IMG/VR virus record: IMGVR_UViG_2718218402_000007
Coordinates: 1 to 41,142 of that record
Length of the DNA: 41,142 bases
Origin: a virus
Taxonomy: Duplodnaviria > Heunggongvirae > Uroviricota > Caudoviricetes
Direction: 5' to 3' (one strand)
This document shows positions 2,791 to 39,774 of the stretch, one piece after another. Each line of letters begins with the position of its first letter. The first letter of the stretch is position 1. A program made the translations under genes and the position numbers. A model generated the notes under the pieces. It was not told where the DNA came from. It ran no database searches and saw only the letters and a program-made list of their open reading frames with translations.

Positions 2791-2958
2791 GTTGGAGTCA
2801 TTACCTTAGCTCACATTATGAGGAAAGGTATCTTTTTGCGCTATGTAAATTCAAAGGGTTAGCCTCATTTTCCCGATGGCTTTCTCAACACTACTAGTTG
2901 TGAGCCCTTGCAATGTTCATTAATATACGTCTCACAAATAATTCACAGATATTGCAAA

Positions 2959-3732
2959 ATGGATATTACTGAGTTTCCTTCTGGAGTAATTGAACACCTT
3001 GGCTGGTATGTATACCGATTGATTGATCCGAGGGACGGAAGCACCTTCTATGTAGGGAAAGGCAAAGGTAACCGCGTATTTGCCCATATGCGCGGTGAAG
3101 TGGCAGCGACTGATGATGACGAGTTACTGAGCAACAAGCTAAAGCAAATTAGAGAAATAAGGTTAGCAGGACTTGAGGTTATCCATGTCATCCATCGACA
3201 CGGAATGACTGATGAAAAGACGGCGTACGAAGTCGAAGCAGCACTTATTGATGCCTACCCTGGGTTAACGAATATCATGAATGGTGCTGGCAGCAATGAA
3301 TTCGGCGCCGCGCATGTCAAAGAGTTGATAGCAACATATCAACCCGAAACCATAACATTTCATCATAAAGCATTAATGATTTCCGTTAACAGAAGTGCAA
3401 AGGATTCAGAGCTTTATGATGCGGTTCGATTTAGCTGGCGCATTAATGTCTCTCGCGCCAGCCAAGCAGAAGTCATTCTTGCTACTGTAAGGGGGATCGT
3501 TCGAGGGGTTTTCATTGCTGATAAATGGCTCAAATCAACACGTGAAAATTTCCCTACGATGAAATACTGGGACGAGGATCCGGACTTTGAGGCAACACAA
3601 AGTTCTCGCTATGGTTTTGAAGGTCGAGAAGCCCCACCTGAAATAGCAAATCTTTATCTTGGAAAAAAAATACCAGATGAATTAAGAAAAAAAGGAGCTA
3701 TGTCCCCGGTCCGTTACTCACCTAATTTTTGA
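2959..3732 (+). CDS. GIY-YIG nuclease-domain protein with an uncharacterised C-terminal domain
   Basis: N-terminal GIY-YIG signature ([27 protein letters not shown] ... E ... N). ATG at 2959; the track's 2908 start is a TTG. Moderately AT-rich; convergent with the invertase gene at the prophage end. Confidence 0.7.
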
Positions 3733-3792
3733 GTCTTTAAGTGATAAGCATAAACCGCAGCACGATCTTCTTGCATACGACGTGCTACGGTT

Positions 3793-4347
3793 TCATTTAT
3801 CTCCGACCGGAAACTTCTTACACAGTGTCGATATACCAACATCATAGATGATCGCCACCTTCTGGCGAGGAACGCCTGATGCAATTAATCGTCCGGCCTG
3901 CTCCCATTGTTCTGGTGTAAGTTTGGGGCGACGTCCACCAATTCGTCCCTGTGCGCGAGCTGCTTCCAGTCCAGCTTTTGTTCGTTCAACAATCAGTTCA
4001 CGCTCCATTTCAGCCAGGGCACCCATCACATGAAAGAAAAAGCGCCCCATTGGGGTACTGGTATCAATTGAATCCGTCAGACTACGAAAGTTGATGCCTC
4101 GTTCGCGCAACTCCTCCACCAGCACGACAAGATGCCGCATACTACGCCCTAGCCGATCCAGCTTCCAGACAACCAGAGTGTCACCTGCCGATAATGTCCT
4201 GAGCAGTTTTTTCAGTCCCGGCCTTTCGGACTTTGTACCGCTTATCTTGTCTTCAAAAATCAGCTCGCATCCTGCACAGTTCAGCGCATTACGTTGTAGA
4301 TCTGTGTTCTGGTCATTTGTTGACACACGTACATAGCCAATAAGCAT
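3793..4347 (-). CDS. pin: Serine-recombinase DNA invertase (Pin/Gin/Hin/Cin family)
   Basis: Starts MLIGYVRVSTNDQNTDLQ with the catalytic serine motif and a C-terminal HTH; GGGAG Shine-Dalgarno 9 nt upstream of ATG at 4347. Sits immediately beside an invertible tail-fibre segment. Confidence 0.9.
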   Translation of the reverse strand: MLIGYVRVSTNDQNTDLQRNALNCAGCELIFEDKISGTKSERPGLKKLLRTLSAGDTLVVWKLDRLGRSMRHLVVLVEELRERGINFRSLTDSIDTSTPMGRFFFHVMGALAEMERELIVERTKAGLEAARAQGRIGGRRPKLTPEQWEQAGRLIASGVPRQKVAIIYDVGISTLCKKFPVGDK

Positions 4348-4401
4348 GGTAGATCTCCCTGACAAAAGCAGGAATGATGCCATTTGCTCGTTATTTCTGC
4401 A

Positions 4402-4427
4402 TTTTCATAAACGTTGGTTTGGGAGAA
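4402..4427. other. Invertase crossover site (gix/pix-like), left copy
   Basis: TTTTCATAAACGTTGGTTTGGGAGAA; its inner half GGTTTGGGAGAA is the exact inverted repeat of TTCTCCCAAACC at 6270-6281. Resembles the hix/gix consensus (..AAACC..GGTTT..). Confidence 0.7.
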
Positions 4428-4775
4428 GCGGCGAAAAGGGATGTGGGCACAGGAGAAAATCAGATACCGGATATGTCATCCTGGAAAAGAAATCCGAGTT
4501 CTAATCGCTGGAGAAAATTGCCTGATGGAACCATCATTCAAATGGGAATATCAGCATCAGGGCCATTAGGCTCACCTGTAAATATCACCCTGCCGATATC
4601 TTTCAGCAATACCAATTATTGTGTTGTTGCATCGTACGATAATGCACGGTCAGGTGTGTCAACAATGGTTAGTTTTGCAGCATTACCTGTTTCACCATCG
4701 CAATTTTCCCTGATGTCATCTGTGACTGAGCAAGGAATAAATCCTTTTGCTTACTGGATTGCTTTTGGAGATTGA
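4416..4775 (+). CDS. Alternative tail-fibre C-terminal cassette (Sv'-like), promoterless in the present orientation
   Basis: The ORF begins inside the crossover site; the junction peptide ...VGLGE is shared with the expressed tail-fibre gene (...LGLGE at 6270-6295). Followed by its own tail-fibre assembly gene. Confidence 0.6.
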   Translation, partial: GLGEAAKRDVGTGENQIPDMSSWKRNPSSNRWRKLPDGTIIQMGISASGPLGSPVNITLPISFSNTNYCVVASYDNARSGVSTMVSFAALPVSPSQFSLMSSVTEQGINPFAYWIAFGD

Positions 4776-37636: not shown

Positions 37637-37989
37637 ATGTTTTCGAAATGGAAGGGTTTCTTCGTGGGAGATGTGTACCGCGAGATCTGAAAGTAAATGA
37701 AACAGATGCTGAATACCTGGTGCGTAAATTCGATGCGCTTGAAGCTAAATGTGCAGCACAGGAAAACAAAGTAATACCAGTGTCAGCTGAACTGCCACCA
37801 GCAAATGAAAGTGTTTTGTTATTCGATGCTAACGGAGAAGGCTGGCTAATTGGCTGGCGTTCTCTCTGGTACACCTGGGGACAAAAAGAAACCGGAGAAT
37901 GGCAGTGGACATTTCAGGTCGGGGACCTTGAAAACGTCAATATCACTCACTGGGCAATAATGCCAAAAGCACCGGAGGCTGGAGCATAA
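37627..37989 (+). CDS. Hypothetical early-left protein (120 aa)
   Basis: ATG at 37627 overlapping the upstream gene's 3' end; Trp-rich C-terminal region. Confidence 0.55.
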   Translation: MRMNVFEMEGFLRGRCVPRDLKVNETDAEYLVRKFDALEAKCAAQENKVIPVSAELPPANESVLLFDANGEGWLIGWRSLWYTWGQKETGEWQWTFQVGDLENVNITHWAIMPKAPEAGA

Positions 37990-38294
37990 TGATCACTTTT
38001 ACCGACAAAGAACTGATTAAAGAAATTAAAGAGCGTATCAGCAGCCTTGACGTGCGAGACGATATTGAGCGCCGTGCTTATGAAATCGCACTCCTATCGC
38101 TGGAAGTAGAACCAGATGAACGCGAAGCTTATGAATTATTCATGGAAAAGCGTTTCGGTGACTTAGTAGATCGTCGGAGAGCAAAAAACGGCGATAACGA
38201 ATACATGGCATGGGATATGACTCTCGGTTGGATCGTCTGGCAGCAACGAGCTGGTATCCATTTTTCAACAATGTCACAGCAAGAGGTGAAATAA
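37989..38294 (+). CDS. Hypothetical early-left protein (101 aa)
   Basis: ATG at 37989 in a TAATGA overlap with a GGAG Shine-Dalgarno. Confidence 0.55.
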   Translation: MITFTDKELIKEIKERISSLDVRDDIERRAYEIALLSLEVEPDEREAYELFMEKRFGDLVDRRRAKNGDNEYMAWDMTLGWIVWQQRAGIHFSTMSQQEVK

Positions 38295-38644
38295 TGGAGC
38301 CATACAGCCTCACACTCGATGAGGCCTGTCATTTTCTCAAGATATCCAGACCGACTGCCATTAACTGGATACGCACAGGGCGTCTTCAGGCAACACGCAA
38401 AGATCCCACTAAGAATAAATCTCCTTACCTCACAACACGACAAGCCTGCATTGCGGCTCTTCAGTCTCCGCTGCATACTGTCCAGGTGAGCGCGGGTGAT
38501 GGCATAACAGAGGAAAGAAAATGTCACTCTTCCGCAGAGGTGAAATATGGTACGCCAGTTTCACATTGCCGAACGGTAAAAGATTTAAACAGTCTCTTGG
38601 AACAAAGGACAAAAGGCAGGCGACAGAACTCCATGACAAGCTAA
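38294..38644 (+). CDS. xis: Excisionase-like DNA-binding protein (AlpA/Xis family)
   Basis: ATG at 38294 with GAGGTG Shine-Dalgarno; HTH segment [26 protein letters not shown]; immediately upstream of and overlapping int. The true C-terminus may be shorter than the ORF. Confidence 0.65.
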
Positions 38645-39684
38645 AGGCTGAAGCATGGCGGGTCAGCAAACTTGGTGAAATACCTGATATAACGTTCGAG
38701 GAAGCGTGTGTCAGGTGGCTTGAAGAGAAAGCACATAAAAAATCACTGGACGATGACAAAAGCCGGATCGGATTCTGGCTTCAACATTTCGCAGGAATGC
38801 AACTAAGAGACATTACTGAATCAAAAATTTATTCAGCAATGCAGAAAATGACGAACCGGCGTCATGAGGAAAACTGGAAACTCAGGGCAGAAGCATGCAG
38901 AAAAAAAGGGAAACCTGTTCCAGAATACACGCCAAAACCAGCGTCCGTTGCAACGAAGGCTACGCATCTTTCATTTATAAAGGCCCTACTAAGAGCCGCA
39001 GAGCGTGAATGGAAAATGCTGGATAAGGCACCAATTATTAAAGTGCCTCAACCAAAGAATAAACGGATCCGCTGGCTGGAGCCCCATGAAGCACAAAGGC
39101 TGATTGATGAATGTCCGGAGCCATTAAAGTCTGTTGTTGAATTTGCACTGGCAACAGGCTTAAGACGCTCGAACATCATCAACCTTGAATGGCAACAAAT
39201 AGATATGCAGCGCCGGGTGGCATGGATAAACCCGGAAGAGAGTAAATCAAACCGCGCAATTGGCGTTGCGCTGAATGATACTGCATGTCGCGTATTGAAA
39301 AAACAAATCGGGAATCATCACCGTTGGGTATTTGTGTACAAGGAAAGCTGTACCAAACCAGACGGAACGAAAGCGCCAACGGTCAGGAAGATGCGGTATG
39401 ACGCAAACACAGCCTGGAAAGCGGCGCTGAGACGAGCAGGTATTGATGATTTCAGATTTCACGACTTGAGACACACCTGGGCAAGTTGGCTGGTTCAAGC
39501 CGGAGTCCCGTTGTCAGTGTTACAGGAAATGGGAGGCTGGGAGTCTATCGAAATGGTTCGTCGATATGCTCACCTCGCACCTAATCACCTTACCGAACAT
39601 GCACGGCAAATAGACTCGATCCTGAACCCATCGGTCCCAAATTTGTCCCAGTCAAAAAATAAGGAAGGTACTAGTGATGTGTAA
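38521..39684 (+). CDS. int: Tyrosine integrase (lambda Int family)
   Basis: 387 aa with the conserved C-terminal catalytic region (...[17 protein letters not shown]...VRRYAHL); stop codon 14 bp from the tRNA 3' end. Confidence 0.92.
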
Positions 39685-39698
39685 CTTATTGATTTAAA

Positions 39699-39774
39699 TG
39701 GTGCCGATAATAGGAGTCGAACCTACGACCTTCGCATTACGAATGCGCTGCTCTACCAACTGAGCTATATCGGC
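39699..39774 (-). tRNA. thrW: tRNA-Thr (anticodon CGU), thrW-like; prophage attachment site
   Basis: Reverse complement reads GCCGATATAGCTCAGTTGGTAGAGCAGCGCATTCGTAATGCGAAGGTCGTAGGTTCGACTCCTATTATCGGCACCA: cloverleaf with D and T arms, anticodon loop TTCGTAA, encoded CCA end. Confidence 0.9.

Follow-up and report, generated by a model that had tools for sequence, protein, structure and literature searches.

A prophage of the SfV lineage at thrW with putative phage-defence genes in the place of serotype-conversion cargo

Introduction

What kind of element combines lambdoid regulation, an HK97-like head and a Mu-like contractile tail beside a threonine tRNA gene, and what does it carry if the genes for serotype conversion are not there? 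The question is raised by a stretch of 41,142 nucleotides from a tailed virus (Caudoviricetes; IMG/VR record IMGVR_UViG_2718218402_000007, positions 1 to 41,142), which is called the window below and supplies all coordinates given without another source. A first-pass annotation of it had placed a mosaic prophage of this composition at 2806–39774 and likened it to the serotype-converting phages of Shigella. The element is, with a probability of about 0.92, one prophage of a temperate myovirus from the SfV/SfI/SfII/SfIV lineage, and an SfV-type tyrosine integrase inserted it in the 3' end of thrW. It spans 2806–39744 of the window and continues leftwards past the window start, and the host chromosome is of the E. 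coli type. The element is a further member of a well-known phage lineage and not a serotype converter. Beyond the first reading, the analysis reveals a mis-set left boundary, an invertible fibre switch, characterised and candidate defence genes replacing the glucosyltransferase (gtr) cargo and a composite of the insertion sequence IS1 that carries corA inside the prophage.

Phages of the SfV type with this mosaic of HK97 head, Mu tail and lambdoid control have reportedly been described from the SfV genome paper onward. The prophage itself is nothing new in principle. E. coli often carries such prophages; matches to parts of the tail region occur in 3032 of 5426 complete genomes.

Integration site and extent of the prophage

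The features that define the integrated state are as follows.

38210–38644, plus strand: excisionase (Pfam HTH_17)
38521–39684, plus strand: tyrosine integrase (Pfam Phage_integrase)
39699–39744: attachment (att) core, attL, 46 bp, TGGTGCCGATAATAGGAGTCGAACCTACGACCTTCGCATTACGAAT, the 3' 46 bp of thrW
39699–39774, minus strand: thrW, tRNA-Thr(CGT), the sole tRNA found by ARAGORN
39889–41142: proA, adjoining thrW

The integrase and excisionase genes beside tRNA-Thr(CGU) and next to proA, as reported in the first-pass annotation, are all present in that arrangement. The homology to SfV in local blastn stops at 39744, inside thrW, and this defines the 46-bp att core at 39699–39744. The identical 46-mer forms attR in the E. 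coli genomes MLI104K1, QA-1986 630 and O157:H7 C1-057. Nearly all long open reading frames (ORFs) from about 5170 to 35190 lie on the minus strand, and those of 35280–39684 on the plus strand.

The left end of the prophage cannot be placed inside the window, since no second att core was found in it by a search allowing up to 3 mismatches or by a script allowing up to 10. The attR core of MLI104K1 is found 2,208 bp left of the position equivalent to window base 1; this arrangement shows that 2806 is an IS1 junction only and that the prophage runs beyond the window. The span 2806–39774 given earlier thus holds as to the existence of the prophage, while its left limit turned out to be the outer end of IS1 and its right junction is the att core.

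Some points weigh against this assignment or loosen it. The left end and attR lie outside the window, and their position is taken from MLI104K1. This genome is 99.5% identical over window 1–4450, yet it differs at 4451–6030 and 11562–13923. No genome in the searched collections is identical to the window; MLI104K1, the best complete E. coli genome, differs in these two segments. Exact matching of the IS1/prophage junction against a collection of species-representative genomes was likewise negative.

A second, tandem island follows beyond attR at thrW in two of the compared genomes. In O157:H7 C1-057 it contains an integrase with genes of an ABC-three-component system (comparison locus L006, 1–3619), and in MLI104K1 it contains the CP4-type ykfI/yeeU toxin-antitoxin genes (L001, 1–1411). 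These tandem islands mark thrW as a serially occupied hotspot.

One prophage of the SfV lineage

The best megablast matches in the phage collection are vB_EcoM-720R4, 689R6, SfIV, SfII, SfI and SfV, at 95–98% nucleotide identity. Over the 36,893 nucleotides of 2806–39698, colinear coverage in local blastn amounts to 24,573 nucleotides for SfV, 26,959 for SfIV and 25,874 for vB_EcoM-720R4. Together the three phages cover 85.8% of this interval at 88–98% nucleotide identity, which bears out the resemblance to SfV proposed earlier. The stretches matched by none of the three (2806–5009, 5773–6268, 23977–24547 and 27432–29384) are cargo or fibre-tip segments. The amino acid identities of the main proteins to those of SfV are listed below.

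Integrase: 98.2%
Excisionase: 98.6%
cI repressor: 99.6%
Cro: 100%
Large and small terminase subunits (TerL, TerS): 98%
Tail sheath and tube: 98–99%
Baseplate proteins (SfV orf15–20): 98–100%

The portal, protease, capsid, tape measure and Q alleles are of the SfIV/SfI/SfII type and not of the SfV type. Precisely this allele split within the group is reported in the SfIV paper, and the same architecture and integration in thrW are stated there for this phage group (PMC3851460).

Every element of the gene order listed in the first-pass annotation was found in the order given there, and the claim of lambdoid control, HK97-like head and Mu-like tail is backed by tblastn against HK97 and Mu together with Pfam matches (see below). 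The head and the tail differ in their closest classical relative, HK97 for the former and Mu for the latter, and the guanine-cytosine (GC) content shifts along the element. Both facts would be expected if a remnant of a lambdoid, HK97-like siphovirus lay beside a remnant of a Mu-like or P2-like myovirus. Such an arrangement is extremely improbable. The head-tail junction (about 15800–17941) is colinear at 93–98% with the genomes of SfV, SfIV and vB_EcoM-720R4, phages that have been isolated or induced; there is a single tyrosine integrase, a single cos, a single lysis cassette and a single immunity region, and no repeat of the att core separates the head and tail modules. The two-prophage explanation was rejected on account of the colinearity with genomes of single virions, and the possibility of two adjacent prophages, named in the first-pass annotation as what would overturn it, is not borne out.

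Cargo at the att-proximal end

What occupies the end where the Shigella relatives carry their serotype-conversion genes is the following gene.

2959–3732, plus strand: PD-T4-3, also CMoRE, a 257-residue GIY-YIG type IV restriction endonuclease (Pfam LEM-3_GIY-YIG)

The PADLOC model PD-T4-3 matches the protein over its full length (E-value 2.4e-140), and 253 of the 257 residues (98%) are identical to the crystallised CMoRE of E. coli O157:H7 in PDB entry 9U75. CMoRE is a type IV endonuclease which degrades T-even DNA containing 5-hydroxymethylcytosine or its glucosylated form (PMC12923530). The gene region is present in 852 of 5426 complete E. coli genomes.

No homologue of SfV GtrA, GtrB or GtrV was detected by tblastn in the window or in the att-proximal stretch of MLI104K1. 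In O157:H7 C1-057, which lacks IS1 at this place, the order is pin, PD-T4-3, a gene for an AraC-family regulator, an insertion sequence remnant and the att core, beyond which comes a further island with an integrase. MLI104K1 has this order too, except that between its PD-T4-3 and AraC genes 185 bp have given way to the IS1-corA-IS1 unit. The earlier statement that the glucosyltransferase end is missing is therefore correct for the gtr genes and incorrect for the end itself, as the slot holds PD-T4-3, with the AraC regulator and the insertion sequence remnant in relatives.

Could the element have been a serotype-converting phage from which an IS1-mediated deletion removed the gtrA-gtrB-gtrX end? 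It is true that IS1 borders the prophage at 2805/2806, that some 185 bp found in the IS1-free relative are lacking, and that the composite is not flanked by a target duplication here. This origin is nevertheless very unlikely, and it was rejected: the IS1-free O157:H7 C1-057 has the same gtr-less end, the far side of the transposon in MLI104K1 runs into the same AraC-attR stretch, the 185 bp that are unaccounted for are too few for a 2.5-kb gtr cassette, and tblastn detected no gtr fragments. The occupation of the slot by defence cargo is preferred, and the prophage would most likely repay its host in phage defence and not in serotype conversion.

The IS1-corA-IS1 unit

The left edge of the window is formed by a composite transposon of the following parts.

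1–331, minus strand: IS1A copy, the left arm, cut by the window start, 99.7% identical to the copy at 2038–2805 and inverted to it; IS1A in MLI104K1
332–2037, plus strand: passenger with a yigE' fragment (305–619), ysgD (about 781–837) and corA (989–1939), after the PGAP annotation of a 99.5% identical stretch
2038–2805, plus strand: IS1A, 768 bp, the right arm, with terminal inverted repeats and InsA and InsB ORFs

The unit is a 3.2-kb composite inside the prophage with a second copy of the Mg2+/Co2+ channel gene corA, and it is also seen in comparison loci L001 (3564–6805) and L009 (6233–9474). Its unique part, 332–2037, occurs at 7325 places in 5425 E. coli genomes, with at most 4 per genome, so many strains hold an extra copy. 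In strain KFu022 a unit with identical inner junctions is located in a lambda-like prophage remnant near tonB and has a perfect direct repeat of 9 bp, GGCAACATC, on either side; this duplication is a signature of transposition as a composite. The window and MLI104K1 both lack a target duplication around the unit, as well as 185 bp of O157-type sequence, which speaks against a simple insertion at the present site. From this it follows that a rearrangement happened at this prophage end; in both genomes a secondary deletion, or two insertions that recombined with each other, is indicated. A literature search for an IS1-corA composite transposon gave nothing relevant. The unit shows a housekeeping channel gene mobilised and duplicated via prophages, which could matter for metal homeostasis or for the annotation of "core" genes.

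A candidate Rex-like gene pair between Q and the late operon

A second cargo region interrupts the homology to SfV between the antiterminator gene Q and the lysis genes.

27414–27426, minus strand: terminator-like hairpin, downstream of the late promoter region
27587–28522, plus strand: gene A, 311 residues, basic and soluble, PDC-M53A, a PADLOC candidate with a predicted RexA/RdgC fold
28555–29124, plus strand: gene B, 189 residues, PDC-M53B (PADLOC E-value 1.6e-39), predicted four-helix membrane protein
29116–29143: perfect hairpin with a 12-bp stem and T-runs on both sides, between the convergent genes B and Q

The alignment with SfV ends at 27431, equivalent to SfV 33675, which is the start of the annotated post-Q terminator (33675–33710). 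Genes A and B form a patch of low GC content (0.38–0.40) between Q and the late-region terminator hairpin. They are encoded on the plus strand, which is the one expected to be expressed in the lysogen, like cI and opposite to the late genes, and they are far from cI. The hairpin at 29116–29143 probably acts as a bidirectional terminator insulating the cargo from early-right transcription. A promoter scan around the pair found consensus matches less often than in shuffled sequence and was set aside.

The A family comprises 748 clusters (50% identity) at an E-value of at most 1e-3. In Enterobacter, Siccibacter, Yersinia and Xenorhabdus the homologues of A and B are likewise paired neighbours. 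Prophages of Enterobacter have the pair between Q and holin, as in the window. In prophages of Pasteurella multocida the homologous pair directly follows the cI-type repressor gene on the same strand, divergent from cro, and thus matches the position of rexA-rexB in lambda. The predicted structure of A has a RexA/RdgC-type fold, and a Foldseek search of A against BFVD also gives phage RdgC proteins. The model of B (AF2, pLDDT 84) consists of four long hydrophobic helices, and lambda RexB likewise has four hydrophobic stretches. By analogy with lambda RexAB, A may be a DNA-binding sensor of RexA fold which would activate the four-helix membrane effector B and so abort superinfection.

The comparisons at the sequence level weigh against this proposal. 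Alignment by hhalign of A profiles built from 27 and 95 sequences with lambda RexA or with a 25-sequence RexA profile gave a probability below 1%, and the comparison of the B profile with RexB was equally negative (below 1%). An hmmsearch of the PDB sequences gave no hit, neither gene has a Pfam match, and Pfam RexA (PF15969) or RdgC was matched by none of the 95 A family members scanned. Foldseek found no significant structural neighbour of B in BFVD. By sequence the pair is not a member of the RexA or RexB families. Because of the null profile comparisons and the lack of PDB, Pfam and BFVD support, we favour only slightly the view, derived from structure models and gene context, that the pair works like RexAB.

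The same null results would fit an unrelated moron, for example a DNA-binding regulator accompanied by an envelope membrane protein for superinfection exclusion, or a toxin-antitoxin-like pair: the profile-profile comparisons give A and B no similarity to RexA or RexB, the 95 members of the A family yield no Pfam RexA or RdgC match, and B matches nothing significantly among BFVD structures. The moron explanation is a tentative one, but a serious one. It does not account for the order and sizes of the genes, a soluble basic A followed by a four-helix membrane protein B, which parallel rexA-rexB, nor for the pair standing immediately 3' of cI in Pasteurella prophages, as in lambda. The RexAB-like function would make PDC-M53 a large RexAB-type abortive-infection family, not recognisable by sequence and residing in the lysogenic-conversion slots of lambdoid prophages, with the SfV lineage filling its two cargo slots either for O-antigen modification, in Shigella, or for phage defence, in E. 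coli; the chances of this broader picture seem evenly divided. With the same even chances its range would be Enterobacterales and Pasteurellaceae, with B also in Vibrio, Shewanella and Aeromonas. A literature search for the name PDC-M53 found no paper, and the Rex-like assignment provides a concrete, testable mechanism for this candidate system.

The best viral structural match of A (E-value 3e-9) and the weak best match of B (E-value 0.28) belong to the same uncultured phage, Siphoviridae sp. ctylc9. The two BFVD entries, A0A8S5S8L2 and A0A8S5S8H0, are close in accession, which suggests a further diverged copy of the pair. Among the other early-region ORFs of unknown function PADLOC gave nothing credible, the only hit being a weak PDC-S22 match to the KilA-N protein.

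An invertible tail fibre segment

Between the att-proximal cargo and the baseplate genes lies a segment bounded by two inverted crossover sites.

3793–4383, minus strand: serine DNA invertase of the Pin/Gin family (Pfam Resolvase and HTH_7), named pinE in relatives
4374–4775, plus strand: gp53-like C-terminal fibre tip without its own N-terminus, predicted to be silent (Pfam Gp53-like_C)
4403–4428: left crossover site, whose reverse complement is TTCTCCCAAACC AA CGTTTATGAAAA
4779–5198, plus strand: assembly protein of the silent set (Pfam Caudo_TAP)
5170–5772, minus strand: tail fibre assembly protein (Tfa)
5772–6572, minus strand: tail fibre, with constant N-terminus and variable tip (Pfam Collar)
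6269–6294: right crossover site, within the tail fibre gene, TTCTCCCAAACC AA GGTTTTCGAGAG

The invertase is encoded by a full-length ORF and is 78.8% identical to Mu Gin, to which it aligns over residues 10–193. The 20-nucleotide inverted repeat (4409–4428 and 6269–6288) is 95% complementary, and both 26-bp sites have a central AA. Two half-sites around a central AA are the layout of Gin, Hin and Pin sites. The nucleotide homology to SfV begins exactly at 6269, at the right crossover site. Over its N-terminal 108 residues the fibre has 93.5% identity with SfV orf21; identity with the C-terminus of HK97 Stf is 67% for the tip, and the Tfa at 5170–5772 is 92% identical to that of HK97. The silent tip and its Tfa show 37% and 32% amino acid identity to the C-terminus of SfV orf21 and to orf22, respectively. 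As drawn, the tip similar to HK97 and lambda Stf is the one predicted to be expressed. Judged from its sequence, the region 4403–6294 is a Gin/Pin-type invertible segment, a putative host-range switch of the type of the Mu G and e14 P segments, and the invertase probably switches host range.

E. coli CX21 (comparison locus L017) and FAM21845 (L018) carry this combination of Mu-type tail, invertible fibre segment and pinE as well, at 97–98% nucleotide identity. The CX21 prophage is situated next to dusA and has its own, different integrase; the FAM21845 prophage is near prfC. In both blocks a DinI-like gene follows in place of PD-T4-3. The occurrence of the tail/switch/pin block at dusA and near prfC shows that it acts as an exchangeable module between integration modules.

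Virion, packaging, control and lysis genes

The tail and baseplate genes follow the fibre, all on the minus strand.

6576–7160: baseplate protein, Mu gp48-like
7151–8209: baseplate protein, Mu gp47/J-type
8196–8624: baseplate protein, Mu gp46-type
8621–9169: baseplate protein, Mu gp45/V-type
9169–10248: baseplate hub, Mu gp44/P-type
10245–11621: DNA-circulation protein, Mu gp43/N-type
11646–13553: tape measure (Pfam PhageMin_Tail)
13638–13961: tail assembly chaperone (Pfam Phage_TAC_7)
13958–14314: tail tube (Pfam Tail_tube)
14314–15807: contractile sheath (Pfam Phage_sheath_1)
15800–15961: small protein like Mu gp38
15970–16530: tail terminator (Pfam Phage_tail_terminator)

In tblastn the baseplate proteins are 27–45% identical to Mu gp43–48 (E-values 1e-10 to 5e-52), among them gp44/P (35%, 5e-52) and gp47 (30%, 3e-39), and the sheath is 36% identical to Mu gpL (gp39/L; 5e-69). 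Pfam families specific to Mu are matched here (Phage_Mu_Gp48, Baseplate_J, GP46, Phage_Mu_Gp45, GpP-like and DNA_circ_N). The tape measure and chaperone are the SfIV-type allele, with 98% nucleotide identity to SfIV and only 22% amino acid identity to SfV orf14. In the tail block 13958–16530 the match to SfV orf10 is 96%.

The head and packaging genes come next, on the minus strand.

16527–17941: head-tail joining region, with the head completion protein at 17008–17418 (Phage_HCP), a gp6-like connector at 17415–17738 (Phage_connect_1) and two small ORFs
17991–19196: major capsid protein (Pfam Phage_capsid)
19211–19897: S78 prohead protease (Pfam Peptidase_S78)
19839–21080: portal (Pfam Phage_portal)
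21080–21262: small ORF, the last of the HK97-type head group
21274–23007: TerL (Pfam TerL_ATPase and TerL_nuclease)
23004–23507: TerS (Pfam Terminase_4)
23565/23566: cos region, between the HNH and TerS genes
23624–24022: HNH endonuclease (Pfam HNH)

The head genes 17991–21262 are the SfIV/720R4-type allele, with 96–98% nucleotide identity to both phages. The identities of the head and packaging proteins to HK97 in tblastn are 32% for the portal gp3 (E-value 8e-54), 36% for the protease gp4 (2e-23), 26% for the capsid gp5 (4e-7), 26% for TerL (3e-27) and 37% for the cos-adjacent HNH protein (HK97p62, 3e-8). The ends of the linear SfV genome, positions 1 and 37074, abut at 23565/23566, which locates cos there.

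A small plus-strand ORF (24014–24265, 83 residues, coiled-coil-like) is found between the HNH and Rz1 genes, opposite to the late genes. It belongs to the unmatched stretch 23977–24547, is absent from SfV, SfIV and 720R4, and is annotated as hypothetical in MLI104K1.

The lysis, replication and control genes complete the element.

24460–25012, minus strand: Rz1/Rz
24996–25472, minus strand: endolysin
25476–25883, minus strand: lambda-family holin (Pfam Phage_holin_3_1)
25889–26941, minus strand: N6/N4 DNA methyltransferase (SfV orf48, 98% amino acid identity; Pfam N6_N4_Mtase)
27091–27309, minus strand: small ORF (SfV orf47, 89% amino acid identity)
29144–29506, minus strand: Q antiterminator, SfIV-type allele of 120 residues
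32517–33335, minus strand: HTH_36/DnaD-like replication protein (Pfam)
33561–34397, minus strand: Ash-family protein, followed by a small ORF
34394–34957, minus strand: cII-like CP76 protein
34992–35189, minus strand: cro
29144–35189, minus strand: rest of the early-right operon, with PerC-like, LexA-DNA-binding-domain, RusA, KilA-N and DUF968 proteins (Pfam)
35280–35954, plus strand: cI repressor, LexA-like with S24 autopeptidase (Pfam Peptidase_S24), divergent from cro
36106–38294, plus strand: early-left genes homologous to SfV orf33, orf30 (YfdR-like HD hydrolase), orf29 and orf28, 97–99% amino acid identity

The Pfam antiterminator model is matched by Q over nearly its whole length. The products of the cro-to-orf45 genes are 75–100% identical to those of SfV, and S, R, Rz and Rz1 are 81–96% identical. 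The predicted immunity specificity is that of SfV. The methyltransferase is located between the late terminator region and the holin gene without a cognate nuclease nearby and looks like an orphan phage methylase.

Functional state of the prophage

Each ORF that was compared with SfV aligns over its full or nearly full length; among these are all the structural, packaging and lysis genes as well as int, xis, cI and cro. From this gene content the element is fairly likely to be still inducible. The length with the 3.2-kb transposon, about 42 kb compared with 37.1 kb for SfV, weighs against this; it is near the packaging capacity but probably within it, as SfII has 41.5 kb.

Several observations would suit a cryptic, non-inducible prophage like e14 or the thrW remnant of O157:H7, kept only for its cargo genes. 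Decay is evident in the O157:H7 thrW relatives, whose fibre genes are frameshifted and whose stfP is truncated; pinE and one early gene are frameshifted in MLI104K1, the transposon insertion with the adjacent loss of 185 bp shows that the end is decaying, and the genome length has been raised to about 42 kb. Such a state is unlikely, although it deserves consideration. The ORFs are of full or nearly full length compared with SfV, Q included, and the invertase is full-length here; the cos region and the att core are intact, the transposon resides in a non-essential cargo slot, and SfII packages 41.5 kb.

Comparison with known phages and systems

SfV (U82619 / NC_003444) agrees with the prophage in integration at thrW, in the att core, which is identical, in gene order and in the position of cos. 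Its Int, Xis, cI, Cro, most early proteins, TerS and TerL, sheath, tube and baseplate proteins are 92–100% identical to those encoded here. In contrast to the prophage, SfV possesses gtrA, gtrB and gtrV, dam and orf31/32; the last two ORFs (yfdQ/yfdP) and dam have no match in the window. The Q allele differs as well, the portal and capsid are only 26–28% and the tape measure 22% identical, and the SfV protease, used as the tblastn query, detects no counterpart in the window. The invertible fibre tip and the invertase have no equivalent in SfV, and PD-T4-3, the PDC-M53 pair and the IS1-corA-IS1 insertion are extra here.

SfIV, SfII and SfI match the prophage at 96–98% nucleotide identity in the portal-protease-capsid, tape measure and Q alleles and have the same int/xis and thrW site. 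They differ in having gtr cassettes adjoining attP and in lacking the invertase, PD-T4-3 and the PDC-M53 pair; SfIV also carries ISEhe3 and IS1 insertions elsewhere. vB_EcoM-720R4 (ON470603) has 25.9 kb in common at 91–98% nucleotide identity, including the entire head-tail block, but it has another immunity region and no cargo pair. The thrW prophage of MLI104K1 is alike over 33.3 kb at 97–99.5% nucleotide identity (99.2% against window 13924–41142) and has the IS1-corA-IS1 unit, PD-T4-3, the PDC-M53 pair and the thrW-proA flank; its tape measure and fibre-tip alleles are different and its pinE is frameshifted. The thrW copy of O157:H7, unlike the present element, is decayed.

The fibre switch resembles the G segment and Gin of Mu in its inverted 26-bp sites with central AA, one of them inside the fibre gene, in its Gin-like invertase, in its two convergent sets of fibre tip and assembly gene and in the Mu-like baseplate genes upstream. 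A corresponding likeness to the P segment and Pin of e14 presumably exists too. The rest of the genome is unlike Mu, as it has no transposase and has cos rather than Mu-type packaging, and the tips are HK97 Stf-like and gp53-like and not Mu S/S'.

Lambda RexA-RexB and the RexAB-type system of Pseudomonas putida (PP_5643/5644) share with the cargo pair a soluble basic protein of about 300 residues with RexA/RdgC fold (here predicted), followed by a small four-helix membrane protein; they are likewise prophage-borne on the lysogen-expressed strand, and the Pasteurella homologues stand directly after cI. From lambda RexAB the pair differs in having no detectable sequence similarity and in its place between Q and the late operon instead of beside cI; RexB of lambda has 144 residues and B has 189.

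PD-T4-3 differs from CMoRE (PDB 9U75, 9U7U) by four substitutions and in no notable way, and its gene occupies the slot where the Shigella relatives carry gtrABX. The comparison illustrates the plasticity of the cargo slots in this lineage, which serve serotype conversion in Shigella and carry a T-even-specific type IV restriction enzyme and a probable Rex-like pair in E. coli.

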